A DNA stretch of 64,000 nucleotides from Candidatus Omnitrophota bacterium. GTDB lineage: Bacteria; Omnitrophota; Gorgyraeia; Gygaellales; Profunditerraquicolaceae. The notes below the pieces were generated by a model. It made no database searches, was not told where the DNA came from, and saw only the letters and a program-made list of their open reading frames with translations. Shown here one piece after another: positions 19,441 to 52,453 of the stretch. The stretch lies in assembly GCA_028716245.1 (NCBI GenBank), contig JAQUQW010000001.1, forward strand, positions 549,925 through 613,924. Reading direction: 5' to 3'. Each line of letters begins with the position of its first letter. Within the stretch, counting starts at the first letter, position 1. The position numbers were made by a program, and so were the translations under genes.

Positions 19441-22353
19441 TTAGCGGATTACGGCAAAGGGGCAAATTTGGTTATAAGCGCAATAAGTGCAGGCTTTGTA
19501 TTCGGGTTTGGCCGGGTACTCTTGCTGGCGAATACCCTTAGAAACGATCAGAATATCCTCTTTTACTTCCTCTATTTTATCCTCGGTAACCTTATGCCTG
19601 CCGACAATCCCGGACTCTAAGAAGTATAACTCTACCGCGGCAGGCAAGACTCCGGAAATGTGCTGATAGGCCAGGGCATAAAGGATCAACTGCTTATTTT
19701 CCTTGACCCGCTTGTCCGCGTCCTTCTGGGTTTTGATCTCGGAGGTCTTAAAATCCATAATCACCGCTCCGTCATCCCGTATATCGATGCGGTCAAACCT
19801 GCCGGTAATCTTATTGCCTCCGATAACAAAAGAAAAAGGCTCCTCGATAAATTTGGGAGTCAAATTACGCCTTTCTTCATCCTTATAAAATCTGGATAAA
19901 GCCTCCCTGCCGATGCGAAAACGCTCCTCCTGATGATTAGAATCTAAAAAACCCTGCGGATCAAAACTAGCTTCAAAACAATCCAGGAGTTTATCCATAG
20001 ACACCTTTTCCCCTTTAAGCTTACGCAATAAATATTGGCTGACTGCCTCGTGCATTGCCCGGCCGTAAATAACCGTATGATGCTCCATAATCGGCACGCG
20101 CAGGATATTGACATATTTATATTTTAAAGGGCAGGTCAGATAATCATCGATCTGATAATAACTTAAAGTGATTAACTTATCTTCCGGGATTTCCTGGAGA
20201 GCTGATTTCGACAACTCCTTAACCGGAGTAAAACGCTGGATACTTTCAATCGCCGCGGTTTTTTTCTTTTCCACTTCTTCCACGGATTTTTTACCTAACG
20301 CCTCCAAGACAAATTGGCTTACCTTACGCAGGCGCTTGCCGCCATAATCATCAGCGCTGGTTAAATACAATTCTTCTTTGGAGCGGGTCATTCCCACATA
20401 AAAAAGCCGGCGCTCCTCCTGAGTATGAAAATCTCCGGTCGGCAAAACTTCTTTAATCAAAGCATCCGGCAATTCGATTTGCTGTGAACGTCTAGGCAGG
20501 GGAAATTTTCCCTGTACCAGGCTGACTAAAAATACCGCTCTAAATTCCAAACCTTTAGCTTTATGGATAGTCAAAATATTCACCGCATCCTGATCTAGGT
20601 CCGCCTCGACTGTCGGCGGGTCATCTCCGGAATCAATCAAGAGGTTAAGGTGTTTGATAAAACTAATTACTCTGTCCTCTTTAGCGATCAGTTCATAATC
20701 ACGCACCTGATTAAAAAATTTAGCGATGTTTTGAATCTTAGCTTCTTTTTCTAAAGTTGGATTATGGGTTAAATATTTAAGATAACCCGTATCAGTCAAA
20801 AAACTATACAGCAGCCTGCCGGTTGTCTCATTACGGGAAACCTGCAGAAATTTTTCAATTTCTTCAAGCACCCGCTTTATTTTATCCTTAGTCTGGTCCT
20901 GAACCTGGGCTAACTCCGGGATCTTTTCCAAATCGCCAAACACCGAATAAAGCGAACGGTTCCTGCGCCGGGCAAAGTGGTTGCACAATGTCAAATCAGC
21001 TAGGTTTACTTTATAGATTTCAGAACTTACCAGATAATATAAACTTAATGAATCCGAAGGATTGGCAATTACCCGCAGGAAATTAATACACAACTTGACC
21101 TCTTCCCGGGCGTATAAACCCTGGTTACCGCTAAACTGCCAGGGAATATTCTGCATATTCAGCGACTGGATAAAACTTTGGGCATCGGAATTGGAGCGCA
21201 CCAGGATGGCAAAATCCCTATACTTAAACTTACCTAAACTTACTTTATCTAGTATAATCTTACTTACATTATCAGCCTCAGCCGAATGCGTATCAAAGTG
21301 CAAATGGATTGGCTTTTCGCCCTTTTTAGTCAAGCCGATCAGGTGTTTATCGATTTTAGCTTTGACCTCAAAACGCTCGGGATTATTATTTTGGATCAAC
21401 TGGTAGGCGCTATCTAAAATTGGCTGGGTCGAGCGGTAATTCTGGATCAGGGTAATTTTTTCAGCATCAGGATATTCTTTATTGAAATTTACCAGATTAC
21501 TGTAGGCAGCTCCGCGCCAGCGATAAATACACTGGTCATCATCTCCGACAACCGTAACATTTTTTAAGGAGCCGGCAAGCAACTTGACAATTTGGAACTG
21601 CGCAAAATTAGTATCCTGGAATTCATCAACTAAAATATATTTAAATTGTTTCTGGTAATTCTGTAAAACCAAAGGATGCTCCCGCAACAGTTGTAAACTT
21701 AAATAAAACTGATTGCCAAAATCAACCAATCCTTCTCTGGCCAAAAGTTCCTGGTATTTAACGTAAGAAGCGGCTACCTCCATCTGCTGCGCTGCCAATT
21801 CTTCCGTGGCTTTGTCTTCCGGATTGCTCTTGGCCTGGATTAGAAAATCCTGCGCGTATTTTAAATACTCTTTGGCTGAAATATCCTCATCTTTTGCCCG
21901 GCTAAAAAATGAAATCAGCGCTTCGATAAAACGGGTGGGCTCAGCTAACGGCCGGTAATAATCAAGCGTGAATTCAAAAAGATGCTCGCGGAAAAACACC
22001 GCTGCCTCCGGCTGGGTGAGCACCTTAAAATCCGGATTTAATCCGGCAACTAAAGCGTTCTCGCGCAAGAGACGATCACCAAAAGCGTGAAATGTAGAGA
22101 TCCAAATATCCGTATAACCGTAAGGCATCAGGATATCCACCCTTTCCTGCATTTCCTTAGCTGCCTTATCGGTAAAAGTAAGCGCTAAGATTTCATCGGT
22201 CTTGGCCAAGCTCTGATTAATCAACCAGGCAATGCGCTGGGTAATTACGCGGGTCTTGCCCGTCCCCGCGCCGGCAATAATTAAAAGCGACCCGTCTTTA
22301 TGGGTAGCCGCCTGCACCTGCTCTTTATTTAATCCTTCTAATACTTTATCCAT
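19441..22353 (-). CDS. UvrD/PcrA-type superfamily-1 helicase fused to a C-terminal Cas4/AddB-like PD-(D/E)XK nuclease with a Cys4 cluster
   Basis: N-terminal GAGTGKT Walker A and UvrD motifs. The C-terminus has TCPLKYKY, DFKTSE and C-x2-C-x5-C (CTYCAYNQIC). Confidence 0.8.
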   Translation of the reverse strand: MDKVLEGLNKEQVQAATHKDGSLLIIAGAGTGKTRVITQRIAWLINQSLAKTDEILALTFTDKAAKEMQERVDILMPYGYTDIWISTFHAFGDRLLRENALVAGLNPDFKVLTQPEAAVFFREHLFEFTLDYYRPLAEPTRFIEALISFFSRAKDEDISAKEYLKYAQDFLIQAKSNPEDKATEELAAQQMEVAASYVKYQELLAREGLVDFGNQFYLSLQLLREHPLVLQNYQKQFKYILVDEFQDTNFAQFQIVKLLAGSLKNVTVVGDDDQCIYRWRGAAYSNLVNFNKEYPDAEKITLIQNYRSTQPILDSAYQLIQNNNPERFEVKAKIDKHLIGLTKKGEKPIHLHFDTHSAEADNVSKIILDKVSLGKFKYRDFAILVRSNSDAQSFIQSLNMQNIPWQFSGNQGLYAREEVKLCINFLRVIANPSDSLSLYYLVSSEIYKVNLADLTLCNHFARRRNRSLYSVFGDLEKIPELAQVQDQTKDKIKRVLEEIEKFLQVSRNETTGRLLYSFLTDTGYLKYLTHNPTLEKEAKIQNIAKFFNQVRDYELIAKEDRVISFIKHLNLLIDSGDDPPTVEADLDQDAVNILTIHKAKGLEFRAVFLVSLVQGKFPLPRRSQQIELPDALIKEVLPTGDFHTQEERRLFYVGMTRSKEELYLTSADDYGGKRLRKVSQFVLEALGKKSVEEVEKKKTAAIESIQRFTPVKELSKSALQEIPEDKLITLSYYQIDDYLTCPLKYKYVNILRVPIMEHHTVIYGRAMHEAVSQYLLRKLKGEKVSMDKLLDCFEASFDPQGFLDSNHQEERFRIGREALSRFYKDEERRNLTPKFIEEPFSFVIGGNKITGRFDRIDIRDDGAVIMDFKTSEIKTQKDADKRVKENKQLILYALAYQHISGVLPAAVELYFLESGIVGRHKVTEDKIEEVKEDILIVSKGIRQQEYPAKPEYKACTYCAYNQICPFAVIR

Positions 22354-23036: not shown

Positions 23037-23798
23037 TTATTTATTCCCTAATACTTCCGAGGCAGCTTTTCGGTAGACACAGAGATCACAGTCTTCCGCG
23101 GCTTGCGGAATCGTATCGCTATTTAAACACTGATGTATCTCTTTAATTGTGCCGCTAACCCAGCTATCATTGCCTTCATACGCGATAAGCGTTAAGTTAA
23201 ACTCTAATTTTGCGTCAAATTTCTCAAGCGCGGTATTACCGTTACAATATACAAAATATCCTGTGTTGATTACATTAAAACCATTACCCCGCAGCAACCA
23301 TTGGTAAATCTCCATCTGGCGCTTATATCCACCGTGCCACTCCTCATCCAAAGCATTGATTTCTTCAGGCTTGCTGGTAGACTTATAATCCACCACCATA
23401 TATTCGCCTTTACTGTTCTGCCATAAATCATCGATTGCCCCAAAGATTAGTAAATTCGTCGGCTTATCCAATACCTGAACCCCTTTGAAATTATTTCTCC
23501 ATTCATCCAACTGGGCAAGTTTTGCCGGGAACGCGTCCACTCCGTATTTTTTCATCAACGGATGCGCCTGGCCGCTTTTACGCAATAAATCAAACTCTTT
23601 TTTCAACAAGGTATCCACCGCGCTGTTTAAGGTATACGGGAACATCGGCGGAGCCCCCACCCCCAGCCGGCGGTCCAGGTAAAAACACCGCGGGCAATTC
23701 GTAAAAAGCTCAATCTTGGAACGGCTCAGCTTAAAGGGCTCGACGCTTTTAGGATTATAAAGGTTCCTGTCTCTTTTTGGCGTGTAGTATTCTGACAT
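23037..23798 (-). CDS. standalone Cas4-like PD-(D/E)XK nuclease with a Cys4 cluster
   Basis: N-terminal CPRCFY, the D...VVDYKST core, and C-terminal C-x12-C-x2-C, 253 aa. Confidence 0.65.
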   Translation of the reverse strand: MSEYYTPKRDRNLYNPKSVEPFKLSRSKIELFTNCPRCFYLDRRLGVGAPPMFPYTLNSAVDTLLKKEFDLLRKSGQAHPLMKKYGVDAFPAKLAQLDEWRNNFKGVQVLDKPTNLLIFGAIDDLWQNSKGEYMVVDYKSTSKPEEINALDEEWHGGYKRQMEIYQWLLRGNGFNVINTGYFVYCNGNTALEKFDAKLEFNLTLIAYEGNDSWVSGTIKEIHQCLNSDTIPQAAEDCDLCVYRKAASEVLGNK

Positions 23799-24220: not shown

Positions 24221-24799
24221 TCAATAATTTTCCGCTAAAACTTCGTAATATGCCTGCGGATGTTTACAGGCAGGGCATTCTTTAGGCGCCTCAGTCCCTT
24301 CTACCACGTAGCCGCAGTTAATGCAGTGCCATTTAACAACCGCGTTTTTCTTAAATACTTCAGCATTGCCGATATTATTAATCAGTTTCCTATACCTGCT
24401 TTCATGAAATTTTTCTACTTTGGATATCTGCTCAAAACTCCGCGCTATCTCAGCAAACCCCTCGTCTTTTGCTATCTTGGCGAAATCCGAATAAAGAGTT
24501 GTCCATTCTAAATTTTCTCCGGCAGCGGCCGCCTCAAGATTGCTTTTGGTATCCTCAATCATTCCTGCTGGATATGCCGCGGTAATCTCCACATCACCGC
24601 CCTCCAAATGTTTAAAAAACATCTTGGCATGTTCCTTTTCGTTTTCCGCTGTCTCGCTAAAGATATTGGTGATCTGTTCGTACCCCTCTTTTCGTGCCGC
24701 GCTGGCAAAATAAGTATACCTATTCCGTGCCTGAGATTCCCCGGCAAAAGCTTTCAGGAGATTTTTCTCTGTCTTTGAACCTTTAATTGTTTTGCCCAT
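24221..24799 (-). CDS. rubrerythrin
   Basis: Ferritin-like diiron domain with E..E..H motifs and a C-terminal rubredoxin-like CINCG...CPACK. The probable start is MGKTIKG at 24799; the track ORF runs to 24814. Confidence 0.85.
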   Translation of the reverse strand: MGKTIKGSKTEKNLLKAFAGESQARNRYTYFASAARKEGYEQITNIFSETAENEKEHAKMFFKHLEGGDVEITAAYPAGMIEDTKSNLEAAAAGENLEWTTLYSDFAKIAKDEGFAEIARSFEQISKVEKFHESRYRKLINNIGNAEVFKKNAVVKWHCINCGYVVEGTEAPKECPACKHPQAYYEVLAENY

Positions 24800-24827
24800 T
24801 TTTGCCACCTCCATCCACTTCTGGTTT

Positions 24828-31670: not shown

Positions 31671-32939
31671 TTATCCTAAATTAAGTTTTGCGTAAATATC
31701 TTTCTCTTTATTCCCGGGCGGGCCGATTAAGGCCAAATTTATCTTTTTATTATTAAAAATCTTACCGGCAACCTCGCGTACATCTTCCATATTCACTTTA
31801 TTTACTTCTTTGATAATCTGCTCCAATGTATATGCCTTATCTAAACAGGCAACGCTCTCGCCCATCCAAAGCATATACTCCATCGTATCTTCTAAAGCCA
31901 AGCTAAGCTGGCCGGCATAAAATTCTTTTGCCCGGCAAAACTCATCTTTGCGCACAATGGTTTTTCTTAGTTTTCCTAGCTCTTGAAATATCAGGCCCAG
32001 GCAATCTTCTACTTTATGGTTATCAATCCCGGCGTGCACCAGGAACTCCCCGGTATCGGCAAAACGTTTAATCCCTGTTCCAATTTCATAGGCCAAACCT
32101 CTTTTTTCTCTAACCTCATTAAAAAGCCGGCTGGACATATTGGCGCCTAAGATTATGTGCAATAACGCCTGAGCGTGCCTTAAAGGATCTCCGCGTTTTA
32201 AAGCATGAAAACCCAGGGCCATATGCGTTTGTTCAGTGTCTTTGTGAAAAATTTTTAACTGCGGTTTTCCCTGGCCCTCTTTAACCGCCGTGAATGTATT
32301 TAATTTAGCCGCAGCCTGCGCTGAAAAAATGGCGGAAACCTCATTTACCAGTAAATCATGCTCCAGCAATCCGGCCGCGCTGATTACGATATTAGCCGGG
32401 GTGTAGCGGCTGGCCTGATATTTTTTTAAACTATCCCGGTTAATACTATTTACCGAATCTACGGAGCCGATTATCGGTAAGCCTAATGGCTGGTGCGGCC
32501 AAAGCAGTTCATCCAGCAGCTCATAAACATAGTTTTGCGGAAGATCGCGGTACATCTTCAGCTCTTCCAGGATGACTGTTCTTTCTTTGGTAATATCCGC
32601 CTGTTTTAAAGACGGATTAAGGACCATATCGGACAAGATATTTAAAGCGTGGATCAAATAACGGCTGGGGATTTTTACCAGATAACAAGTAAACTCTTCG
32701 GAGGTAAAACCATTCAATGTCCCGCCGACTCCCTCAATCGACTCTTTAATCGCGCGGCAGGAATATTTTTTGCTGCCCTTAAAAAGAAGGTGCTCCAGGT
32801 AATGCGAGATCCCTTTTTGAAAAGCCGCCTCATAGCGGCCGCCGATATTGATCCAAATACCTAAAGATACGGATTTGGCCTGGCTTAAGGATTTGGAAAT
32901 TATCCTTAAGCCATTGCCTAATTTGCTCCTTCTATACAT
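31671..32939 (-). CDS. M16-family zinc metallopeptidase (insulinase-like)
   Basis: Inverted zinc motif HYLEHLLF (HxxEH), 422 aa. Confidence 0.8.
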   Translation of the reverse strand: MYRRSKLGNGLRIISKSLSQAKSVSLGIWINIGGRYEAAFQKGISHYLEHLLFKGSKKYSCRAIKESIEGVGGTLNGFTSEEFTCYLVKIPSRYLIHALNILSDMVLNPSLKQADITKERTVILEELKMYRDLPQNYVYELLDELLWPHQPLGLPIIGSVDSVNSINRDSLKKYQASRYTPANIVISAAGLLEHDLLVNEVSAIFSAQAAAKLNTFTAVKEGQGKPQLKIFHKDTEQTHMALGFHALKRGDPLRHAQALLHIILGANMSSRLFNEVREKRGLAYEIGTGIKRFADTGEFLVHAGIDNHKVEDCLGLIFQELGKLRKTIVRKDEFCRAKEFYAGQLSLALEDTMEYMLWMGESVACLDKAYTLEQIIKEVNKVNMEDVREVAGKIFNNKKINLALIGPPGNKEKDIYAKLNLG

Positions 32940-33717
32940 TAAGCCTTTCTACAAAGCTGCCTACTCTTTGCACTAAGTTGCCGCGGCCGATATTTTCTTT
33001 GATCTGTTTGACGATAGCGCTTCCGACAATTACGCCGTCGGAAATCTTCGAAACTTCTTTTACCTGAACCGCGTTAGAAATACCAAAACCGACGCAAACC
33101 GGTTTAGCGGTTAATTTTTTTATCCTTAAAAGGTTGGCTTTAAGATCCGCGCTTAAATTATCGCGGCTGCCGGTTACTCCGGTCAAAGAAACATAGTAAA
33201 TAAAACCTTGATCAGCTTTAGATATTAATTTGATCCGCGCGTTGGAACTGGTCGGAGCGACAAAACAAATATTGACCAGGCCCTTCTTATTGGCGTAATG
33301 CATAAAATCTTTTGCTTCCTCAGGCGGTAAATCCGGAATAATTACTCCGTCAACTCCGGCGGCTGCGGCTTGATTGATAAACCGCCTGTCTCCAAAACAA
33401 AAAACAGGATTGTAATAGGTCATTAAACATATCGGCAACTCTGTAGTTTGGCGTAATTTCTTTACCAAATCTAAAATCTTAACCAGATTGGTTCCTTTTT
33501 TAAGAGAATAACCGGAGGCCTCCTGGATTACCGGGCCGTCAGCCAAAGGGTCTGAAAAAGGCACCCCTAATTCAATTATATCTGTGCCTCTTTTTTCAAG
33601 TTCAATCACCAATTTTGCGGTTGTCGATAAATCCGGATAACCGGCGGTTATAAAAGCAATAAATGCTTTCCTGCCCTGCTTCTTTAATTGGATAAATTTC
33701 TGATCAATACGATTCAT
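32932..33717 (-). CDS. trpA: tryptophan synthase alpha chain
   Basis: 261-aa TrpA family ([18 protein letters not shown]). Confidence 0.9.
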
Positions 33718-34879
33718 GCAGGTCCTTATCCCCTCTTCCGGAGAGGCAAACGATCACAGTGGCGTCTTTCTTAATCTTTTTCCCCGCTTTTTTCAAATAG
33801 GCAATGGCGTGGGCGGATTCTAGCGCCGGGATAATCCCTTCCACCTTGGATAATAATTTAAAACCTTCCACAGCTTCTTTATCGGTGATGGCCGCATAAT
33901 CGGCCCGTTCTATCTCTCGATAATAGGCATGTTCCGGCCCGACCCCTGGATAATCCAGCCCCGCGGCGATTGAATGCGCGTTTTTGATTTGGCCGAATTT
34001 ATCCTCTAAGATTTTTGATTTTGAACCGTGCAAAACTCCGGTTGAGCCAAATTCAAGGCTTGCCGAATGTTTTCCCGATGCTATTCCTAAACCCGCGGCT
34101 TCTACCCCGATCATCTTGACATTACTATCATTAAAAAATGGGTGGAATAAACCAATAGCGTTGCTTCCTCCGCCAACACAAGCAACCAAATAATCCGGCA
34201 GGCGGTTATCTTTTTTTAAAATTTGGGCGCGGGCTTCAACTCCGATCACGGATTGAAAGTTGCGCACCATTTCAGGATACGGATGCGGCCCAGCTACTGT
34301 TCCGATCACATAATAAGTATTACGTACATTAGTTACCCAGTCGCGCAAGGCCTCGGTCATGGCATCTTTTAAAGTCTGCGTTCCGCTTTTAACGCTAATT
34401 ACCCGGGCGCCCAGTAGTTTCATCCGCAGGACATTTAAAGCCTGGCGATGGATATCTTCTTCCCCCATATACACATCGCATTCCAATCCGAATAAAGCCG
34501 CCACCGTAGCGGTAGCTACTCCGTGCTGGCCTGCCCCGGTCTCGGCAATCAATCTTCTCTTGCCCATCCTGACCGCCAAAAGCACCTGGCCCAAAGTATT
34601 GTTAATCTTATGCGCGCCGGTATGTAAAAGATCCTCGCGTTTTAGATAAACCTTTTTTATCCCTAAATACTGGCTTAAATTTTTCGCTAAGTATAACGGA
34701 GTGGGCCGGCCGGCGTAATCGCTCAGATAATAAGTGAGTTCTTTGGCAAATTTTTTATCTTTCCTGGCTTTGGAATACTCGTTTTCTAATTCATCGAGGG
34801 CATAGATCAGCGTCTCCGGGACAAATCTTCCGCCAAAGATACCAAAGTGCCCGCTTTTATCCGGTAGTTTATTTTTCAT
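33704..34879 (-). CDS. trpB: tryptophan synthase beta chain
   Basis: 391-aa PLP enzyme ([19 protein letters not shown]). Confidence 0.95.
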
Positions 34880-34881
34880 AA

Positions 34882-35490
34882 TTAAATTTTCTTCATAAAT
34901 TCCTGGATCTTCTTATGGTCCTTCTTGCCGGGCTTTGATTCCAGGCTGCTGGAAACATCCACCCAATCGGGCCTTAATAATTTAATCGCCTTCTTCACGT
35001 TGCCGGCAGCCAAGCCGCCTGACAAAAATACAACAGGCTCCATTCTAGCTGTTTGCGCGAGTATTTTCCAGTTAAATTTTTTCCCTGTCCCGCCCAGCTT
35101 GGTTCTTGAAAAACTGTCGAATAGATAAGCAAAAGTTTTATACCTGGCTACGTCCTCTAAATCTTCCTGATTATTTATCCTGAAGGCCTTGATTACTTTA
35201 TATCCTTTAAATTTCCGGCAGTAATCGGGTGATTCCTGGCCGTGAAACTGCAGTATATCTAAATTACAGAGCCTGGCGATTTTTTTTACTTTTGCGATAT
35301 CTTCGTTGACAAAAACCCCCGCCCGTTTGATTTTTTTCGGTAAAATCCGCGATATATTTGCCGCTTTGGCCGGGCTGATAAAACGGGGGCTTTTATCATA
35401 GAAGACAAATCCGATAGCGCTGGCTCCGGCAAACAATGCCGCCAAAGCATCCTCTAAATTAGTAATCCCGCAAATCTTAACTTTTACCAA
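34882..35490 (-). CDS. trpF: phosphoribosylanthranilate isomerase
   Basis: VKICGIT N-terminus, 202 aa. Confidence 0.85.
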
Positions 35491-36272
35491 CCCATTACCT
35501 CATCCACTTTACTTTTTATATCCGCTGACTCCATAAAAGCAGTTCCGACTAATACGGCGCTAGCCCCCAGAATTTTCAGGAATAAAACATCCTGGGAATT
35601 TTTAATTCCGCTTTCCACAACCACTATTTTATCTTTGGGGACCAAAGTAAATAATTTTTCCGTAGTCTTAAAATCAACCTCCAGTGTATGCAGATTGCGG
35701 TTATTAATTCCGATTATCGGCACCTTTAAATTCAACACCTTCTTTAATTCCTTCTCATCGTGCACCTCGACCAGATAATCCAGGCCAAGCTCATCGGCAA
35801 TCCGCATAAACTCAACTAATTTGTCTTTGGTCAATAAATCCGCGATTAAAAGAATCGCGTCAGCCCCTAAAAAACGCGATTCATAAACCTGATAGCTTTC
35901 CAAAATAAAATCTTTTCTTAAAACCGGGCCGCTAAATATGGCCTTTACTTCATTTAGGTAAGCGGGATTGCCATTAAAAAAATCCTCTTCAGTTAATACG
36001 GAAAGCGCCTGAACCCCTGCCTCTTGATAAGCCCGGGCAATATCAGCTAAATTAAAATCCTGGCGGATTACCCCTTGGGAAGGCGAAGCTTGTTTTATTT
36101 CAGCGATAAGTGAAATCTGCCGCGGTTTACTGATTGCCTCTTTGAACGCACGCGTAGCCGGCAAGCCGGCTAATTTTGCTTTTAAATCTTCCGGACTTAA
36201 TTGTTGTTGGCTTAAAGCAATTCTTTCCTTCTTTTTGGCGACGATCTCTTTGAGTATGTCGGTTTTAGCCAT
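35484..36272 (-). CDS. trpC: indole-3-glycerol-phosphate synthase
   Basis: IAEIKQASPSQG motif, 262 aa. Confidence 0.9.
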   Translation of the reverse strand: MAKTDILKEIVAKKKERIALSQQQLSPEDLKAKLAGLPATRAFKEAISKPRQISLIAEIKQASPSQGVIRQDFNLADIARAYQEAGVQALSVLTEEDFFNGNPAYLNEVKAIFSGPVLRKDFILESYQVYESRFLGADAILLIADLLTKDKLVEFMRIADELGLDYLVEVHDEKELKKVLNLKVPIIGINNRNLHTLEVDFKTTEKLFTLVPKDKIVVVESGIKNSQDVLFLKILGASAVLVGTAFMESADIKSKVDEVMGW

Positions 36273-36273
36273 C

Positions 36274-37281
36274 TTATTGCGAATATTCCTTTAATAGCTC
36301 AAGTTTTTTAAGCGCCGCGCCTGAATCAATTGCTTTCTGCGCTAGTTTTATTCCCGCGGCAATCGTTTCCGTTTTATCCGCGGCGTAAATAGCGCATCCG
36401 GCATTAAGTAAAACAATATCCCTCTTGCTTCCCTTCTTGCCGGCCAATACCTCCTGGACAATCTTTACATTTTCAGCGATGGACCCGCCTAATAAATCAG
36501 CAAATTTAGCCCTCTTTAAGCCAAAATCCTCCGGAGTAATTTGGTAATCTTTTAACTGGCTGTTTCTTACCTCGGAGACAAAAGTTTTATCAGTAGTCGT
36601 AACTTCATCCAGGCCATCTGCGCCATGCACCACTAAAACGTGCTTGGTGCCTAAATTATGTAAAACTTGCGCTAACGGCTTGGTCCATTCCTTGGAATAT
36701 ACGCCGATTAGCTGGTTAGTTGCCCGCGCCGGGTTAATCAAAGGCCCTAAAATATTAAACATGGTCTTACGCGCAATTTGTTTTCGAGCCGCCATAACAA
36801 AACGCATTGCCGGATGCAGGTTTGGGGCGAATAAAAAAGCAATGCCTATCTCTTCCAGGCATTTTTTGATTTTTGCCTTATCCATATTAATATTAACGCC
36901 GAGTGCCTCCAGGATATCCGCGCTGCCGCATTTACTGGATACCGAGCGATTGCCGTGTTTGGCCACGGTTACCCCTGCGCCGCTGGCTACCAAGGCAGTT
37001 ACCGTTGAAATATTAAAAGTCCCTTTTTTATCCCCGCCTGTTCCGCAGGTATCCAGTATGTTTGGCTTATCGACGATAATCGGCTCAACGTATTTAAGCA
37101 TTACATTGACCGCGGCAGTTAGCTCTCCTACTGTTTCGCCTTTAGCATTCAAAGAAGTCAAAAACTCGACGATATCGGCGGTTTCCGCCGCGCCGCTTAA
37201 AATCTCCTGCATCACCTGCTGCATCTGCAGATCGGTCAGATCTTTTTTATTAACCAGTTGTTTAATTAAATCTTTGATCAT
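36274..37281 (-). CDS. trpD: anthranilate phosphoribosyltransferase
   Basis: [16 protein letters not shown] motif, 335 aa. Confidence 0.9.
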
Positions 37282-37859
37282 TTGATCTTGATAAAATTAT
37301 CCAATATCTGTTTTCCGCTTTTGGTAAGTATGGATTCAGGGTGGAACTGCACTCCCCAGATAGAGTATTCTTTATGTTTTAACCCCATAATTTCATCTTC
37401 CTTGGTGCTGGCGGTTATTTCCAGGCAAGCCGGTAAACTTTTTTTCTCAACCAGCAGGGAATGATATCGGGTAGCCAAAAATGGATTGGGAATATTTTTA
37501 AAAATATCTTTTTTATTATGATAAATCTTGGAGGTCTTCCCGTGCATGAGTTTTGCGGCTCCGACGATCCTGCCGCCAAAAACATAACCGATCGCCTGAT
37601 GCCCCAGGCAAACCCCCAGAATCGGAATTTTACCCGCGAATTCCCGGATAACCGCGCAGGAAATCCCGGCATCCTCCGGCCTCCCCGGCCCCGGAGATAT
37701 AACAATTCTATCCGGATTAAGTTTTTTAATATCCTTAATGGCCAAGGCGTCATTGCGGTAAACTAAAACCTTCTGCCCCAATTCCCCTAAATACTGCACC
37801 AGGTTATAGGTAAAAGAGTCGTAATTATCAATCATTAAAATCATTCTTTTTCTCTCCAA
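37278..37859 (-). CDS. trpG: anthranilate synthase component II / glutamine amidotransferase (TrpG/PabA)
   Basis: Class-I GATase with the GVCLGHQ catalytic Cys and HPES, 193 aa. Confidence 0.85.
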
Positions 37860-39103
37860 ACTTTGGCGCCTAAGTTAACTAATTTTTTTTCGATAAATTC
37901 ATAGCCGCGTTCCAAATGATAAATCCTGGAAATCGATGTTTTTCCGCCTGCGGCTAAACCGGCCAAAACCAAACCCGCGGAGGCGCGCAAATCCGAGGCC
38001 ATTACCGGGGCTCCGGATAATTTTTTTATTCCTTCAACAATAGCGTGCGGCCCCTCTCTCTGGATATGGGCGCCCATACGGTTAAGTTCGGAAACATGCA
38101 TAAACCTGTCCGGGTAAATTTTCTCGGTAATTACGCTGATGCCGCTGGTTACCGCCATTAAACTCATCATCTGCGCCTGCATATCCGTCGGAAATCCGGG
38201 ATAAGGAAGCGTAGTTATATTTACTGATCTTAACCCCCGGTTGCCCTGAACGCGTAACGCCCCGTCAACGCAAGCAATCCGGGCGCCGGCTTCATCTAAT
38301 TTATCAATCAGAGCCCCCAGGTGATGATACACAACATTTTTAATTAATACGTCTCCTTCGGTAATCAAAGAAGCCAAAATCAATGTCCCGGCTTCAATGC
38401 GGTCGGGGATTATCGAATGCGTTGCTCCGTGCAAATCTTTTACTCCCTCTATTTCAATAACCGGTGTGCCCTGGCCCTTGATTTTGGCGCCCATCTTAAT
38501 CAAAAACTCCGCTAAGTCCACTACCTCCGGTTCGCATGCCGCCGATTCAATTATCGTTTTACCGCTGGCTAATACCGCGGCCATCATCACGTTATCGGTC
38601 GCTAAAACCGACGAACCGTATACACCGCCCAGATAAATGTAGGAGCCATGCAGCTTCTTGGCCTTGGCAATTACATAACCTGAATCAATACTGATATCAG
38701 CACCTAAGGCCTTAATACCTTTAAGATGCAGGTCAACCGGGCGCACCCCGATAACGCAGCCCCCGGGAAGAGAAACCTTGGCTTGTTTTAATTTACCTAA
38801 AAGCGGGCCCAAAACGCAGAATGAAGCCCGCATCGTCGAAACCAATTTATATTCAGCAACATATTTTCCGGCTTTACCGGCACCGACACTTACCCTGCCC
38901 TTATCAAATTCGGCAACCTTTCCTAGCGCGCGCAAAATCTTCAGCATACTATTGGTATCCCGCAAATTCGGAACGCCTTTAATTACGCACGGCTCATCAG
39001 TAAGTAAAGTCGCCGCCAATATCGGCAATACCGCGTTTTTTGCCCCGGAAACCGTAACCTCGCCTTTTAATTTCGCCCCGCCTTCAATAATCAGTTTATC
39101 CAT
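37841..39103 (-). CDS. murA: UDP-N-acetylglucosamine 1-carboxyvinyltransferase
   Basis: 420-aa EPSP synthase-fold enzyme. Its 3-prime end overlaps the trpG start by 19 nt. Confidence 0.9.
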
Positions 39104-47615: not shown

Positions 47616-47644
47616 ATTATATACATTTAATATGCAATCGTCAA
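47616..47644 (-). promoter_or_regulatory. minus-strand promoter TTGACG-17-TATAAT upstream of the TPR gene; predicted near-leaderless transcript
   Basis: -35 is the revcomp of 47639-47644 and -10 the revcomp of 47616-47621. The ATG at 47605 is only about 4 nt from the predicted TSS. Confidence 0.5.
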
Positions 47645-47668: not shown

Positions 47669-50233
47669 TTAGATAATCGCTTCCATGGTTAAGGACGGAT
47701 GTTGCGCTTGTTTTAAAAAAGCCATAAGTTCTTCGGAGCTGGTGGCTGTTGACTCATCGGCAATTTTATCCAATAGATCCGCCTGCCCGATTTCTCCGGC
47801 CGCCCTTCTTAGTTTATCCCCCAAGATCTCTTTTAACTCTTTGGGCATCCAGACCACTCTTTTTAATCCGCCTTCAGCCGAAATAAATTTCTTGCTCAGG
47901 ATGTATAATTTACCGACACCCAGGAATCCGGGGGTCTGCACCCCGCCGCCAACTGAACCGGCTAAAGTAGTAAAACTCATTCCGGAAGGAGTCGTTCCGG
48001 GATAGTCCCGGTGGACGATCATTACCCCGTTAGCCTCGGGGATAATGGCCACGATACATTCAAAACATCCGCAGGAAGATTGCGGCCCATCCATCAGCGA
48101 ATACATACTTACCGTATCAATGGTATGATTGGATTTCTGCTGTACGAATTTATTGATATTATCCCATTGGCCCAGCCGCTCATCCAAGAGATTGCCTTTG
48201 AGGATGGGCTGATTCGGGCCGGTGGGAATAATTTCAAAAGAAGCCTTGGCATCAAGCCAGGAATATGCCCCGCATAAACCTAAGCGCTCCGGAGTAACCA
48301 CGCAGACATGGTTTGGGGCAAAAGATTGGCATAATAAGCAGGAATAGAATGTATCCACGCTCTCATCGGTCATCCCGGCTAAGCGTTCATCGCGCTGGCT
48401 GTATATTTTTTGCGCTTGAGCCGACAATCTCTCTACCTCTTCTTGATTGGTATAAAGCTTAACCTGCACCTTATCCACGATCGCGCTGTACTCCTGGTGT
48501 AACATCGCGTGCAAAATAATCCCCAAATGCGCCAGGCGAAAACCCTTGCTATAAGCGTCATTGGATACCCTGATCCAAACCATATCGCGCTGCCCCATAT
48601 GCATAAGGCCCATCGCGTAATTGGTAAAACGATGGATCTGCCGCTCTAAGATCGGTTCAAAATCTTTCTGCATCTTACGGCCGAAAACATCGACCATGAT
48701 CGCCAAAGGCAATGCTTTGGACCCTGCGGGAAGCTGATCAATATCCGGGCCGATCAACTCCACTTTGCCGTCATCAACGCTGGCTTCATCTCTGGCTTCT
48801 AAAAATTCAATCGCCCGGCTTACTTTGCCTCCGAACTCAACAGCCAATTGCTCCTTGCGCACGCGTTCGCCTTCGAATGCCGCCGCGTATGGCAGTGGTA
48901 TAGCCACCTCGGACATTTTAACTTTAATTCCCCGAGTCAAAATACATTTAGAAGGTAATTTTTGGTAATCTTTCTCGGTAACCAAAGCTTCAAATAAAGT
49001 AGTATCGATCTTAGGCAACTGCGGAACTTCTAAATCCGTAATTATGGGCAGGCCAAACGCCAGGCCGCCTAAACCCGTAGCCGCCAAAACCTCATCAATA
49101 TGGCTAAGCAGGAGGATAAATGCCGGAACACGGTTACGGATATAATCGGCTATACCCTCCCACTGCCCGGGTTTATTGCCTCCGTAAATTAAAGGGGCGC
49201 GCACCGCGAAATTTACCGCGTAAATTGCGGAAAGATAATCATCGCCTAGGGGAACAATATAATTCTCTAAACCTAGCTCAATCCCCTGGTTGAGAAGTTG
49301 CTGCCTAAAAGTGTTTCCATTAATATTGCCCGCCAGTAAACTGACAATACTTTTAGATTGAAAATCACGAATTAACCCCGCGGCTGACTCCTCATCCTCG
49401 GCCGGACCCAAAATTACGGCAATACCGCTGATTCTTCCGTCAACTAACTGCAGCCCAAGTGAACGCAAAATGTTATCTGGGATAAAACCCAATCCTTCTT
49501 TAGGATGCTCCTGATTTAATACGGCTAAGGCCGCCAAAATCTCTTCGCAGATTAAAGTAGCAACCCCCTTATTCAACAGGCCGCCCAGGCTGTTAATAAC
49601 CAGGCCGCTCACAGTTGCCTGGTTATTCGCCAAACCTTGGGCCTGGACAAAGGCAGCCAAACAATCGCCAAGATTTTTCACCTCAATATTCAAAAGCGCG
49701 TTGATTAAAGGCAAATAATAATTAGTTTCAGGGAACTCAATTTTTGCGCTTTGGCCTTTACGGCTTATCGCGCTATCCAGAGATTGACGGGTAAGGTTTA
49801 ATACCGTGTCCGTTCCCTTTGTTCCCAGATCTACAATCACCTTAGTCATATCCTGGATATTGTCCGGCTCCTCTGATTTAGCCGACATTGCTTTATCGAT
49901 AAACAAAACTAAACATACCCCTACCGCTTTACCATCTTTAAATTTGACTGCCTCTGCCCTGCCTTCGCCCACAATCTCCTGTATCGGGCTATTGATTACT
50001 TCGATATCCGCCGGCAAGGCTTCGCTAAACTTATCCAAACTATTTACAAGCTTAATTCCGACTTTATGTTTTTCTTGAATTAACTTAGCCAGCTTCAAGG
50101 AAACCTGCGCTGGCCCATCAATACAAACCGTATCGTTGATCAGGTAATCGTCTAGTTTCTTAAAATCATCCTCAGAGCTTAATAAAACTACCCCTTTTTT
50201 TCTGGCTCCCGGTATTTGCGGCAGGTTGGACAT
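47669..50233 (-). CDS. acsB: CO dehydrogenase/acetyl-CoA synthase beta subunit (acetyl-CoA synthase, A-cluster subunit)
   Basis: FYSCLLCQSFAPNHVCVVTPERLGLCGA ([4Fe4S] ligands) and the CGCFE Ni-Ni site motif. Long collinear similarity to Moorella AcsB, plus an extra N-terminal region of about 120 aa. The ATG directly abuts the metF stop. Confidence 0.9.
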   Translation of the reverse strand: MSNLPQIPGARKKGVVLLSSEDDFKKLDDYLINDTVCIDGPAQVSLKLAKLIQEKHKVGIKLVNSLDKFSEALPADIEVINSPIQEIVGEGRAEAVKFKDGKAVGVCLVLFIDKAMSAKSEEPDNIQDMTKVIVDLGTKGTDTVLNLTRQSLDSAISRKGQSAKIEFPETNYYLPLINALLNIEVKNLGDCLAAFVQAQGLANNQATVSGLVINSLGGLLNKGVATLICEEILAALAVLNQEHPKEGLGFIPDNILRSLGLQLVDGRISGIAVILGPAEDEESAAGLIRDFQSKSIVSLLAGNINGNTFRQQLLNQGIELGLENYIVPLGDDYLSAIYAVNFAVRAPLIYGGNKPGQWEGIADYIRNRVPAFILLLSHIDEVLAATGLGGLAFGLPIITDLEVPQLPKIDTTLFEALVTEKDYQKLPSKCILTRGIKVKMSEVAIPLPYAAAFEGERVRKEQLAVEFGGKVSRAIEFLEARDEASVDDGKVELIGPDIDQLPAGSKALPLAIMVDVFGRKMQKDFEPILERQIHRFTNYAMGLMHMGQRDMVWIRVSNDAYSKGFRLAHLGIILHAMLHQEYSAIVDKVQVKLYTNQEEVERLSAQAQKIYSQRDERLAGMTDESVDTFYSCLLCQSFAPNHVCVVTPERLGLCGAYSWLDAKASFEIIPTGPNQPILKGNLLDERLGQWDNINKFVQQKSNHTIDTVSMYSLMDGPQSSCGCFECIVAIIPEANGVMIVHRDYPGTTPSGMSFTTLAGSVGGGVQTPGFLGVGKLYILSKKFISAEGGLKRVVWMPKELKEILGDKLRRAAGEIGQADLLDKIADESTATSSEELMAFLKQAQHPSLTMEAII

Positions 50234-51103
50234 TTATAATCCGCTTGCCTCTAAAACTTTAGGCACAATTTTATCCCAGCCAATCGGCATAATATGAATT
50301 CCCTGGCACATGGGTTTTAATTCCTTGATCAGGCGGCTGGCGATTTCTATAGAAGTAGATGCTTTGTCTTTACTTGACTCCATCTCTCTAATCAAACTGT
50401 CCGGGACTAAAACTCCGGGTATGTTTTTATTCATATAGTTGGCCATTTTTGCCGACTTCAGCAAGACAATGCCTGCCATAACCGGCACTTTTACCTGCTT
50501 TATCTTAGCGGCAAATTTTTCAAAACTCCTTACATCAAAAATTGCCTGCGTTTGAAAAAATTCTGCTCCGGCCTTGATTTTCTTCTCCATCTTCATGATC
50601 TGCGGCTCTAAAGGATCAGAACCTGGGTTAACCACCGCGCCCAGGCAAAATTTTGGAGGATTGCCGGTTAACTTATTACCGTTCATATCCTGGCCGGTTT
50701 CTAATGTCCTGGCCGCCTGCAATAACTGCACTGAATCCAGATCAAAAACCGGCTTGGCTTGTGGATGATCCCCGAGGCTGGGATGGTCCCCGGTTAAAAT
50801 CAGCACATTTTGGATACCTAATGCCGAAGCAGAAAGTAAATCTGATTGCAGGGCAAGCCGGTTGCGGTCACGGCAGGTTAACTGGTAAATCGGCTCAAAA
50901 CCTTTTTGTTTTAACAGGTAACTTACAGCTAATGAACCTAAACGCATCACTGAACTTTGCAAATCAGTGACATTAATTCCGTCAACTTTGCCCCGGATAA
51001 GCTCGGCGTCCTCTAAAAACTGTTGCGTTTGGATCCCTTTGGGCGGGCCGATCTCCGAAGTCACTAAAAATTTTCGCGCCTGTATTTTTTCCTTAAATGT
51101 CAT
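50234..51103 (-). CDS. metF: methylenetetrahydrofolate reductase (acetogen-type MetF)
   Basis: 289-aa MTHFR fold. Confidence 0.75.
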   Translation of the reverse strand: MTFKEKIQARKFLVTSEIGPPKGIQTQQFLEDAELIRGKVDGINVTDLQSSVMRLGSLAVSYLLKQKGFEPIYQLTCRDRNRLALQSDLLSASALGIQNVLILTGDHPSLGDHPQAKPVFDLDSVQLLQAARTLETGQDMNGNKLTGNPPKFCLGAVVNPGSDPLEPQIMKMEKKIKAGAEFFQTQAIFDVRSFEKFAAKIKQVKVPVMAGIVLLKSAKMANYMNKNIPGVLVPDSLIREMESSKDKASTSIEIASRLIKELKPMCQGIHIMPIGWDKIVPKVLEASGL

Positions 51104-51110
51104 AAATTAT

Positions 51111-51908
51111 TTACTGCTGAAGTTTGGCTGCCTCGACCAGGTTGCGCATTAAAATAGCTACAGTCAAGGGGCCCACTCCTCCCGGCACTGGAGTAATATA
51201 AGAGGCTCTTTTTTCTGCTGCTTCAAATTCCACATCCCCGACAATCTTATCACCTAAACGGTTAATACCCACATCGATAACAATCGCCCCTTCTTTAATC
51301 CAATTGCCCTTGATTAATCCGGCTTGGCCGACAGCCACAATCAGCACCTCTGCCCTGCGCACATGCCCTTCTAATCTGCCTGCTTTGCTGGTTGCGATAT
51401 GGCAGATGGTAACCGTAGCCAATTTTTCCAATAAAAGTAGCGCCAGCGGTTTACCGACGATCTCACTATGGCCGACAATAACCACTTCTTTTCCGTACAA
51501 ATCTATTCCCGTAGAGTCCAGCAGTTCCATTACCGCCGTCGGCGTACAAGGATGCATGCCTTCAATGTCTTTTTTTGGCGAAATATACCCGCTTATTTTC
51601 TTGTAGTCCAGATATTGAGGCAGGGGCATTTGCAAAATAATACCGTTAACCGACTTATCGGCATTAAGCTTAATGATAAAATCGATCAATTCATCCTCGG
51701 AAATATTCTCAGGCAGCTGATGCAGCTTATAGGCAATGCCCAGGCCCAAAGCGGTTTTTTCCTGGCTTCTCACATAAGCAGCCGCAGCGGGATTAGCCCC
51801 CACTAACACACTGGCTAAAACCGGAGCCGAAGTTAAGCTTTGCACGTTAAGTTTTATCTGAGCTTTAATTTTTTCAGCAACAGGCCTACCCTCTAATAAT
51901 TTTGCCAA
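51111..51908 (-). CDS. folD: bifunctional methylene-THF dehydrogenase / methenyl-THF cyclohydrolase
   Basis: MAKLLEGRPVAEKIKAQI N-terminus. DGLLVQLPLP is conserved here as GIILQMPLP. 265 aa. Confidence 0.9.
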   Translation of the reverse strand: MAKLLEGRPVAEKIKAQIKLNVQSLTSAPVLASVLVGANPAAAAYVRSQEKTALGLGIAYKLHQLPENISEDELIDFIIKLNADKSVNGIILQMPLPQYLDYKKISGYISPKKDIEGMHPCTPTAVMELLDSTGIDLYGKEVVIVGHSEIVGKPLALLLLEKLATVTICHIATSKAGRLEGHVRRAEVLIVAVGQAGLIKGNWIKEGAIVIDVGINRLGDKIVGDVEFEAAEKRASYITPVPGGVGPLTVAILMRNLVEAAKLQQ

Positions 51909-52449
51909 CTTTTTCCTCCATCTGAGCCCTGCTCTGCTTAATTAATTTTGCTTTTAGCCGTAATTCTTTATTTATTGCTTTAGCTAATTTATGATCATCA
52001 AGGATCTTCAAATTTATATCGACATTAAAACAAGCGGCGCTAAATGCCGACTCTAAAAATATTGCCGCCACTGCCAGATCGCTGATTAAACTCGGGTTTG
52101 TTTTTTTAATTAAAGATGGCAGTATTTTTGCCCCTTCAGCACAAAGCCTGGCCAGCATTAACGGCACATCCGCTGCTTTACGGGGATCTTTACTTTTGTA
52201 CGCTGCGACATCTAAATCTACCAAATCTAAGAAATCATTTGTTAATTTATTGGATTTTCTTAAGGCTGCTTTAAGCTCTGCTTCATATTTGGAATATTTA
52301 GGCTTACCCAAGGTAAAATTAACCACCATACTAATCAAGCTGGCAGCCATAGCCGCGTTCATTGCCGCGGCCGACCCGCCTCCCGGAGCGGGAAGCCTTG
52401 CGGATAAATCATTGAGGTATTTAGTTAAACTTGCAGTTTTATATTTCAT
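51886..52449 (-). CDS. fchA: cyclodeaminase/cyclohydrolase family protein (FTCD C-domain; FchA-like methenyl-THF cyclohydrolase)
   Basis: 187 aa with LPAPGGGSAAAMNAAMAASL in an all-alpha FTCD_C fold. Confidence 0.7.
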   Translation of the reverse strand: MKYKTASLTKYLNDLSARLPAPGGGSAAAMNAAMAASLISMVVNFTLGKPKYSKYEAELKAALRKSNKLTNDFLDLVDLDVAAYKSKDPRKAADVPLMLARLCAEGAKILPSLIKKTNPSLISDLAVAAIFLESAFSAACFNVDINLKILDDHKLAKAINKELRLKAKLIKQSRAQMEEKVGKIIRG

Positions 52450-52453
52450 AATT

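Follow-up and report, generated by a model that had tools for sequence, protein, structure and literature searches.

Together, carbon monoxide dehydrogenase and acetyl-CoA synthase (CODH/ACS) make up one of the oldest enzyme complexes, and in the Moorella enzyme the N-terminal domain of the synthase subunit AcsB docks CODH and carries the CO tunnel. To our knowledge, how ACS operates when it has no CODH is little understood outside Dehalococcoides. In Dehalococcoides mccartyi, AcsB occurs without CODH, and acetyl-CoA cleavage feeds one-carbon (C1) metabolism with CO as a by-product (PMC6113397). CooS (Ni-CODH), CooF and a FAD-dependent NAD(P) oxidoreductase (FNOR) form another recognised unit, which is biochemically uncharacterised (PMC6344411). 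For Omnitrophota, a partial Wood-Ljungdahl pathway is already published: Seymour et al. 2023 (PMC10066038) report 24 species without AcsA and CooS/F, some of them Profunditerraquicolaceae, with CooS/F present in others, predict acetogenic or fermentative anaerobes for this type, and propose CO-dependent synthesis for Velamenicoccus archaeovorus. Here we describe an acsB gene embedded with the methyl-branch genes fchA, folD and metF in a 64-kb window (64,000 nt, the whole stretch analysed) of contig JAQUQW010000001.1 from a Candidatus Omnitrophota bacterium. In its anatomy and evolution, this is probably a CODH-less version of a conserved Wood-Ljungdahl locus.

A conserved syntenic site with and without CODH

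The long AcsB of the window (protein accession MDD5477199.1, Candidatus Omnitrophota) recurs in at least 120 clusters of sequences, which are 840-870 aa in length, 74-93% identical and without exception from Omnitrophota. Gene maps of 94 loci, which combine a genome-scan set (80 Omnitrophota loci from species-representative genomes) with look-up loci, revealed a shared order: trmD-rplS-rnhB-yraN-[fhs]-fchA-folD-metF-X-acsB-TPR-polA, where TPR is a tetratricopeptide repeat gene and X varies. In form A, X consists of cooS (~635 aa, Prismane/CODH), cooF (~150 aa) and FNOR (~420 aa, Pyr_redox_2 plus Rubredoxin_C). Intermediates have cooF-FNOR or FNOR alone, form B has an FNOR remnant of 265-313 aa next to a separate 726-aa AcsB, form C has the remnant fused to acsB (1024-1028 aa), and form D, the state of the window, is a truncated fusion. 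A supercluster, fhs-fchA-folD-metF-(cooC)-cooS-cooF-FNOR-acsB-acsC-RACo-cooC-acsD-acsE, appeared in six AcsC look-ups independent of one another, with the closed genome CP070780 among them, and judging from gene order it is likely the ancestral Omnitrophota state.

The initial annotation had reported no acsA, acsCD or acsE within 15 kb of acsB, and we can extend this to the whole window. Pfam searches of nearly all open reading frames (ORFs) of at least 110 aa found none of cooS/acsA, cooF, acsC, acsD, acsE, RACo and fhs in the 64 kb, and tblastn with Omnitrophota CooS, CooF, AcsC, AcsD, AcsE, RACo, CooC and Fhs seeds gave a best E of 0.076. The other ORFs with Pfam matches are housekeeping genes only.

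The gene maps also show other genes at the locus. Three unidentified genes (728, 482 and 340 aa) lie between acsB and TPR in locus L058 (4651-9383), where cooF is upstream and no cooS or FNOR was called. A 109-aa DMT_6 (PF04342) membrane ORF sits just upstream of metF in L002, L003/L004, L020, L023, L029, L037, L042 and L046, and two Esterase_PHB-like genes lie between folD and metF in L003 and L004; neither is present in the window.

Origin of the N-terminal extension of AcsB

The extra N-terminal region, previously put at about 120 aa, is real and comprises a domain of ~112 aa and a linker of ~37 aa, both located N-terminal to the position that pairs with Moorella residue 34 in the alignment. 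Pfam returned no match to it even at E 10, Pyr_redox models included, and the best match in a PDB sequence search had an E of 0.02. Its homology was revealed only by searching a profile built from 17 extensions against 1.84 billion representative proteins: in Pyr_redox_2 proteins ~290-300 aa long, the profile matched residues 111-225 (E to 3.5e-30), and it also matched a 1024-aa complete Pyr_redox_2::AcsB fusion (P0142). A tblastn search of the window with FNOR residues 112-233 matched the extension at E 1e-3. When residues 1-150 were modelled with AlphaFold2 (AF2), a beta-alpha-beta-alpha-beta unit and a beta-meander were predicted, with a predicted local distance difference test (pLDDT) score of ~80-90 over residues 10-112 and below 50 in the linker (113-149). 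Foldseek retrieved only two-dinucleotide-binding flavoproteins for this model (124 matches at E<=1e-3, with ~125 columns aligned), among them CoA-disulfide reductase (CoADR, E 1.8e-6), TodA, BphA4, FFTR and NADH oxidase/peroxidase. Profile and fold matches together thus identify the extension as the NAD(P)H-binding domain of an FNOR-type flavoprotein without its FAD domain, an origin that the initial annotation had not recognised.

Since the Rossmann fold is kept under strong purifying selection, the domain might still work as a nucleotide-binding or redox module, sensing NAD(P)H or passing electrons for reductive activation of the A-cluster. We regard this as improbable in view of what the domain has lost. 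Its central motif reads IDGPAQVS in place of GGGLIGLK, leaving a degenerate GxGxxG (IDGPAQ), and both halves of the FAD-binding domain are deleted, including the N-terminal GxGxxG-type and C-terminal GD motifs. All FNOR proteins encoded beside cooS/cooF keep IIGxSAAG, Y[CS]RCL, GGGLxGL[KR] and AGD; all cooS-less remnants are without the conserved Cys, GxGxxG and GD, have a 14-residue internal deletion and no Rubredoxin_C, and GxGxxG is replaced differently in every cooS-less lineage. The silence of the Pyr_redox models points the same way.

Residues 1-112 are nevertheless conserved like the catalytic core, with 82-93% identity in blocks. In comparisons with 21 relatives, the proportion of nonsynonymous differences (pN) was 0.09-0.25 in the relic, 0.09-0.21 in the core and 0.24-0.53 in the linker, with the synonymous proportion (pS) saturated. 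These comparisons show a domain predicted to be catalytically dead, yet under purifying selection as strong as that on the core. They also bear on the idea that the extension is an annotation artefact, with the start near M129, an AcsB of ~726 aa and the upstream stretch a decaying pseudogene remnant, as an internal Met in the linker and the separate 726-aa AcsB of form B might suggest. This we consider very improbable: no stop interrupts the frame after the ATG adjoining metF, the upstream domain evolves like the core, the linker with M129 is the least conserved part of the protein, and more than 120 clusters keep the same length. We speculate that the role of the relic is structural or docking rather than redox, perhaps covering the former CODH face. 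Retention of the dead domain also suggests that FNOR itself contacts ACS physically, a contact of which we found no mention in the literature covered.

In one lineage, pseudogenisation appears to be under way: the FNOR remnant upstream of acsB in L037 is split into ORFs of 162 and 117 aa.

Remodelling of the AcsB docking domain

Downstream of the linker, the protein is a recognisable AcsB with the Pfam architecture CODH_A_N (150-236), CdhC (445-600) and ACS_CODH_B_C (611-854), collinear with Moorella AcsB residues 34-728 and Clostridium autoethanogenum AcsB 21-707 (E ~1e-200); in a PDB sequence search, residues 151-853 matched solved AcsB at E 1.4e-203. The A-cluster motifs are C632-x2-C635-x8-C644-x9-C654 and C721-G722-C723-FE, and all of the ligands are invariant across 78 homologues. 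Motifs and collinearity bear out the identification of acsB and the gene calls, and careful alignment gave no sign of ligand loss. For the A-cluster and each of the domains that handle CoA and methyl groups, conservation lies at 80-99%. In other Omnitrophota, acsB is interrupted by an intein (Intein_splicing plus LAGLIDADG homing endonuclease) in the region of the C-terminal A-cluster domain, with products of 1176-1275 aa: L087 6164-9991 (CP070780.1, closed Omnitrophota genome), L088 6459-9989 and L104.

The divergence of the cooS-less proteins is confined to the N-terminal domain. Measured against four supercluster outgroups, cooS-linked AcsB has identities of 0.73, 0.61 and 0.70 in its N-terminal, middle and C-terminal domains; the corresponding values are 0.48, 0.62 and 0.70 for form B, 0.44, 0.61 and 0.70 for form C, and 0.43, 0.60 and 0.69 for form D. 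Between forms A and D, 45 positions are fixed differently, and all but one of them (44/45) fall within residues 150-443. The form-D N-domain is 39-50% identical to that of cooS-linked Omnitrophota AcsB, which are 64-89% identical among themselves. Other cooS-less lineages (fen_1320/L082, L086, L075 and L085/L079) each have their own diverged N-domain, 39-58% identical to the cooS-linked ones, together with ordinary middle and C-terminal domains. According to PMC10066038, the genome fen_1320 has a CheckM completeness of 100%, and its family is one of those without AcsA/CooS.

In each case in which cooS is missing, the docking domain has thus been remodelled. This argues for an AcsB that is genuinely independent of CODH; on sequence comparison, such a pattern would be expected if the contact with CODH has been lost and the gene not merely relocated. 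The competing view is of a complete but scattered pathway, in which a cooS/acsA elsewhere supplies CO by diffusion or docking, the Wood-Ljungdahl pathway runs normally and the extension is incidental. The window is only the part of the genome that was seen, some Profunditerraquicolaceae have CooS/F according to Seymour et al. (PMC10066038), and Carboxydothermus offers a known case of monomeric ACS separate from CODH (PDB 1ru3, one of the AcsB matches). We nonetheless find a scattered pathway unlikely, as cooS-cooF is missing exactly at the position it has in relatives, the docking domain is the only diverged part of AcsB and is so in every cooS-less lineage, the redox motifs of FNOR, which partners that CODH in electron transfer, are all lost, and the same survey has 24 related species without AcsA/CooS (PMC10066038).

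Mosaic ancestry of the locus

The N-domain tree separates all cooS-less from all cooS-linked forms with a bootstrap of 40/40, a split that the middle and C-terminal domains recover in 0/40. The trees of polA and of the AcsB middle plus C-terminal domains agree on sister pairs of mixed form: form-D L023 stands with form-A L060 (97% and 88% on the two trees), form-A L050 with form-B L045/L026 (100% on polA), and form-B L003 with form-A L055 (83%). They also place the window within a crown form-D clade, which is monophyletic (100%, 85%) and has the form-C locus L002 as its sister (93%, 78%). A strict linear phylogeny from A through B and C to D on the AcsB tree was rejected, because the forms interleave with high support in polA and in the AcsB middle and C-terminal domains; cassette exchange fits this interleaving better than a linear series. 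The crown form-D clade and its sister L002 are solid, and the trees do not settle how many fusion and truncation events took place.

The pair L023 and L060 illustrates the step. Identity is 0.89 for folD and metF, 0.87 for the AcsB C-domain and 0.95 for rho, and 0.45 for the N-domain; the N-domain of L023 instead reaches 0.845 with its counterpart in L033 (form B), whose flanks mark it as a genome further removed. The step is sharp and falls at residue ~445-450, where the N-terminal domain meets the middle one. That 70-85% identity arose by independent convergence is not believable, and so the stretch between the end of metF and this boundary has an ancestry of its own and appears to have been exchanged between species. 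Judged by these trees and identities, it appears to come as either of two cassettes, one carrying CODH and the other not, which related species swap by recombination. It is possible, if clearly short of an even call, that within this Omnitrophota family homologous recombination carries both from species to species, one consisting of cooS-cooF-FNOR with a CODH-docking N-domain and the other of the dead relic with a rebuilt N-domain; relic and rebuilt domain would then make up a new structural unit in place of the CODH contact, allowing AcsB to cleave or make acetyl-CoA with free CO. If this is true, CODH-dependent and CODH-independent acetyl-CoA synthase would be interchangeable modules.

A corrinoid module at separate loci

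The carbonyl-branch partners had been suggested to lie elsewhere in the genome. For the corrinoid and methyltransferase genes this suggestion stands, insofar as related genomes have the module at a separate locus; cooS-cooF, in turn, was lost from the present locus. A metagenome scan with an AcsC profile gave 80 loci, about 50 of which carry acsC-RACo-cooC-acsD-acsE without acsB. The acsB-less module has a highly conserved context, gatA-gatB-ctpA-polysaccharide deacetylase-tsaD-mgtC-bactofilin-HTH-AIRC-like and then acsC-RACo-cooC-acsD-acsE, seen in L106, L115, L144, L155 and ~45 other loci. In L101 (7395-14477) and L123 (7395-13919), a DcrB-like gene and acsC-RACo-cooC-acsD-acsE are placed between trpF and trpB, in a string (rho-prfA-prmC-murA-trpGDCF-[module]-trpBA) that has the gene order of the window; their tryptophan operon is otherwise collinear with window positions 32900-39100, and their rho and murA are 91% and 76% identical to those of the window. 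There, trpF (35490..34882) and trpB (34879..33704), both on the minus strand, are adjacent, and the module is therefore not at that site.

Split-type AcsC proteins are 63-72% identical among themselves and 48-55% identical to acsB-adjacent AcsC, and they make up a very large Omnitrophota family of similar G+C, sister of the trp-inserted modules. That AcsC is absent from the split clade, as an L049 seed that retrieved only acsB-adjacent acsC had implied, was rejected once this large divergent family was found. The family also bears on the idea of an orphan AcsB, in which the form-D clade would have no corrinoid iron-sulfur protein (CoFeSP), methyltransferase (MeTr) or CODH, and AcsB would have a new role without a corrinoid methyl donor. 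Among the matches listed, no AcsC is tied to form-D contigs, six of them 366-923 kb long, and the trpF/trpB site of the module is empty in the window. We find such an orphan highly improbable given the size, names, composition and sister position of the split-type family and the conservation of the A-cluster and of the CoA- and methyl-handling domains; the AcsC lists hold at least 120 matches, so absence is not established.

Full clusters contain, in addition, a second Pterin_bind (AcsE-like) paralogue of ~265 aa a few genes downstream of acsE, beside panB/panE-like genes (L082 20102-20902, L091 17623-18411, L092 17841-18638 and L120 15617-16420).

Gene anatomy and boundaries

All four genes of the locus are on the minus strand, and the coordinates of the features, given in the 64-kb window, are collected in Table 1. 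The gene order is trmD-rplS-rnhB-yraN upstream of fchA and TPR, polA, glgA, coaE and rho downstream of acsB, and Pfam assignments of these ORFs agree with the flanks named earlier, TPR/polA on one side and yraN/rnhB on the other. The folD gene starts with TTG (N-terminus MAKLLEGRPVAEKIK), has GGAGG 6 nt upstream and overlaps fchA by 23 nt. The metF stop directly abuts the acsB start (TAAATG), as expected from the reported coupling of acsB to metF; the accompanying statement that acsB has no Shine-Dalgarno sequence is roughly right, the sole string of this kind being GAGG 14 nt upstream.

The initial annotation described one operon of four genes, fchA-folD-metF-acsB. Their co-orientation and tight coupling hold, and the 5' end of the operon is undefined, because the yraN stop is only 4 nt from the fchA ATG and a promoter scan found no convincing promoter upstream of fchA. 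Promoter and terminator scans gave counts at chance level overall. The 3' end of the transcription unit is clear, since a strong promoter-like site sits after acsB; from its sequence and position, it is likely the promoter of TPR-polA and marks this end. Relatives with fhs at the yraN/fchA junction include L003, L022, L025 and L053.

Table 1. Positions of the features of the acsB locus and of compared sites in the window
Feature	Position	Strand	Basis
fchA (methenyl-tetrahydrofolate (THF) cyclohydrolase, FTCD_C), 187 aa	51886..52449	-	Pfam PF04961, E 1.3e-43
folD (methylene-THF dehydrogenase/cyclohydrolase), 265 aa	51111..51908	-	Pfam PF00763 + PF02882
metF (MTHFR, methylene-THF reductase), 289 aa	50234..51103	-	Pfam PF02219, E 5.5e-37
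acsB, 854 aa, truncated FNOR-relic::AcsB fusion (form D)	47669..50233	-	ORF, Pfam and structure alignment
AcsB 1-112 (relic), derived from the NAD(P)H-binding domain of cooS-associated FNOR	49898..50233	-	Profile search, tblastn, Foldseek, pN/pS
AcsB 113-149, variable linker and helix joining the relic to AcsB	49787..49897	-	Low conservation, indels, pLDDT <50
AcsB 150-444, N-terminal domain, remodelled cooS-less type	48902..49786	-	Pfam CODH_A_N, identity comparisons
AcsB 445-610, middle domain	48404..48901	-	Pfam CdhC 445-600
AcsB 611-854, C-terminal A-cluster domain	47672..48403	-	Pfam ACS_CODH_B_C, E 9e-120
Codons C632, C635, C644, C654 ([4Fe-4S] ligands; Moorella C506/C509/C518/C528)	48272..48340	-	Alignment to 1mjg_M
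Codons C721-G722-C723 (Ni-Ni site; Moorella C595-G596-C597)	48065..48073	-	Alignment, 78 homologues
Sigma-70-like TTGACG-17-TATAAT, near-consensus, in the 63-bp acsB/TPR gap	47616..47644	-	11/12 matches, sole strong promoter-like site
yraN/fchA junction, empty here; fhs (formate-THF ligase) site in many relatives	52450..52453	-	Relatives' maps, Pfam FTHFS
trpF/trpB junction, no module here	34879..34882	-	Compared with L101, L123

Across the window (1-64000), every Pfam-matched ORF is on the minus strand and the GC skew is negative in 32/32 windows (-0.05 to -0.21), so that the whole 64 kb lies on one replichore with co-oriented genes. A rubrerythrin gene (24221-24814), an AddA-like helicase-nuclease gene (UvrD plus PD-(D/E)XK; 19441-22353), both on the minus strand, and a second PDDEXK gene (23037-23798) are ordinary features of an anaerobe.

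Proposed course of events and physiological direction

We propose that, in this lineage, the corrinoid module (acsC to acsE) would have moved to another locus, and that cooS and cooF would have been deleted from between metF and acsB. FNOR would have lost its redox motifs, become fused to acsB and been trimmed to its central Rossmann domain, now AcsB 1-112, and the N-terminal domain with its docking and CO-tunnel functions would have been remodelled, the middle and A-cluster domains staying ordinary. The gene evidence lets us hold with moderate confidence that AcsB would operate with no CODH docked to it and would rely on a CoFeSP/MeTr module at another locus. Expressed together with metF-folD-fchA, it would connect the methyl group of acetyl-CoA reversibly with methyl-, methylene-, methenyl- and formyl-THF, either in acetyl-CoA cleavage for C1 supply with release of CO or in CO-dependent synthesis. 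With fhs absent from its usual place and both FNOR and CODH gone, cleavage seems more likely than CO2 fixation, and we advance the physiological direction only tentatively, as a little less than an even chance.

Several points weigh against this account. The catalytic direction, what becomes of CO and the part played by the relic are inferred. The full-length AF2 model has a pLDDT of 61, and the packing of the relic on AcsB is unreadable from it. Polarising the 45 fixed differences with Moorella and C. autoethanogenum gave ambiguous results, and the trees are neighbour-joining trees on single proteins. The survey covers the 64-kb window of a 649,478-bp contig from a genome of about 1.7 Mb, and the absence of cooS, acsC/D/E and fhs holds within it. 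The AcsC matches from the same submission batch belong to other metagenome-assembled genomes, and among the matches listed, no form-D acsB contig was shown to carry acsC as well.

Comparison with known systems

The locus offers a natural dissection of CODH/ACS: at least 120 clusters of CODH-less AcsB, with every intermediate kept in relatives and only the docking domain responding. Within each cassette type the 44 fixed N-domain differences are conserved, and they are candidates for the residues that contact CODH and channel CO. Presence of acsB, moreover, does not imply CO2 fixation, which refines predictions for the abundant ultra-small Omnitrophota of groundwater and lakes. Three things appear new: where the extension came from, the series of intermediates that relatives preserve, and a domain-delimited cassette swap that couples the type of N-domain to the presence of CODH; a full-text literature search found no publication that combines relic fusion, intermediates and cassette swap.

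The nearest named relative is Amyimicrobium, of the family Profunditerraquicolaceae / GTDB UBA6249 and the class Velamenicoccia. In the tables of PMC10066038, the form-D genome AM-2014-D7_bin-608 is Amyimicrobium silvilacustre (Profunditerraquicolaceae = f__UBA6249, Velamenicoccia, genome ~1.7 Mb). The window fits the partial pathway of the V. archaeovorus type in taxon and locus, sharing its phylum and family range and a methyl branch with AcsB and no AcsA/CooS, the absence of CODH being seen here within 64 kb. That study scored genes per genome, and its main text and supplements, as far as searched, contain no relic fusion, N-domain divergence or cassette exchange (PMC10066038).

Dehalococcoides mccartyi resembles the window in having AcsB without CODH, which for our locus holds within the 64 kb. 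It is also said to be without metF, reportedly a result of Zhuang et al. from 2014. The window locus, by comparison, has metF directly upstream of acsB, with metF-folD-fchA described as co-transcribed with it. The partial pathway of the Dehalococcoides kind proposed for this locus agrees with the lack of CODH genes beside acsB and gains indirect support from the remodelled docking domain, and the analogy is only partial because metF is present.

With CooS-CooF-FNOR units, reportedly the subject of work by Whitham in 2015 and Geelhoed in 2016, the window shares an extension homologous to the NAD(P)H domain of FNOR, and its relatives hold the full trio at the same position. The Omnitrophota trio sits directly upstream of acsB inside a Wood-Ljungdahl cluster. 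Compared with such units, the window keeps the central domain only: the FAD domain, Rubredoxin_C, Cys, GxGxxG, GD, cooS and cooF are all gone.

The solved AcsB structures of Moorella thermoacetica (1MJG/1OAO), C. autoethanogenum (6YTT) and Carboxydothermus (1RU3) have in common with the window protein three domains, a collinearity of ~700 residues and all A-cluster ligands; the window AcsB differs in adding the 112-aa flavoprotein-derived domain and linker, and in having no adjacent CODH gene. The beta subunit CdhC of the archaeal acetyl-CoA decarbonylase/synthase (ACDS) complex (PDB 9C0S) matches AcsB 445-848 at E 1e-105 and shows, by analogy, that the A-cluster part may work without the bacterial N-terminal domain. 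CdhC has no N-terminal domain at all, whereas the AcsB of the window keeps a remodelled one and carries another domain before it.

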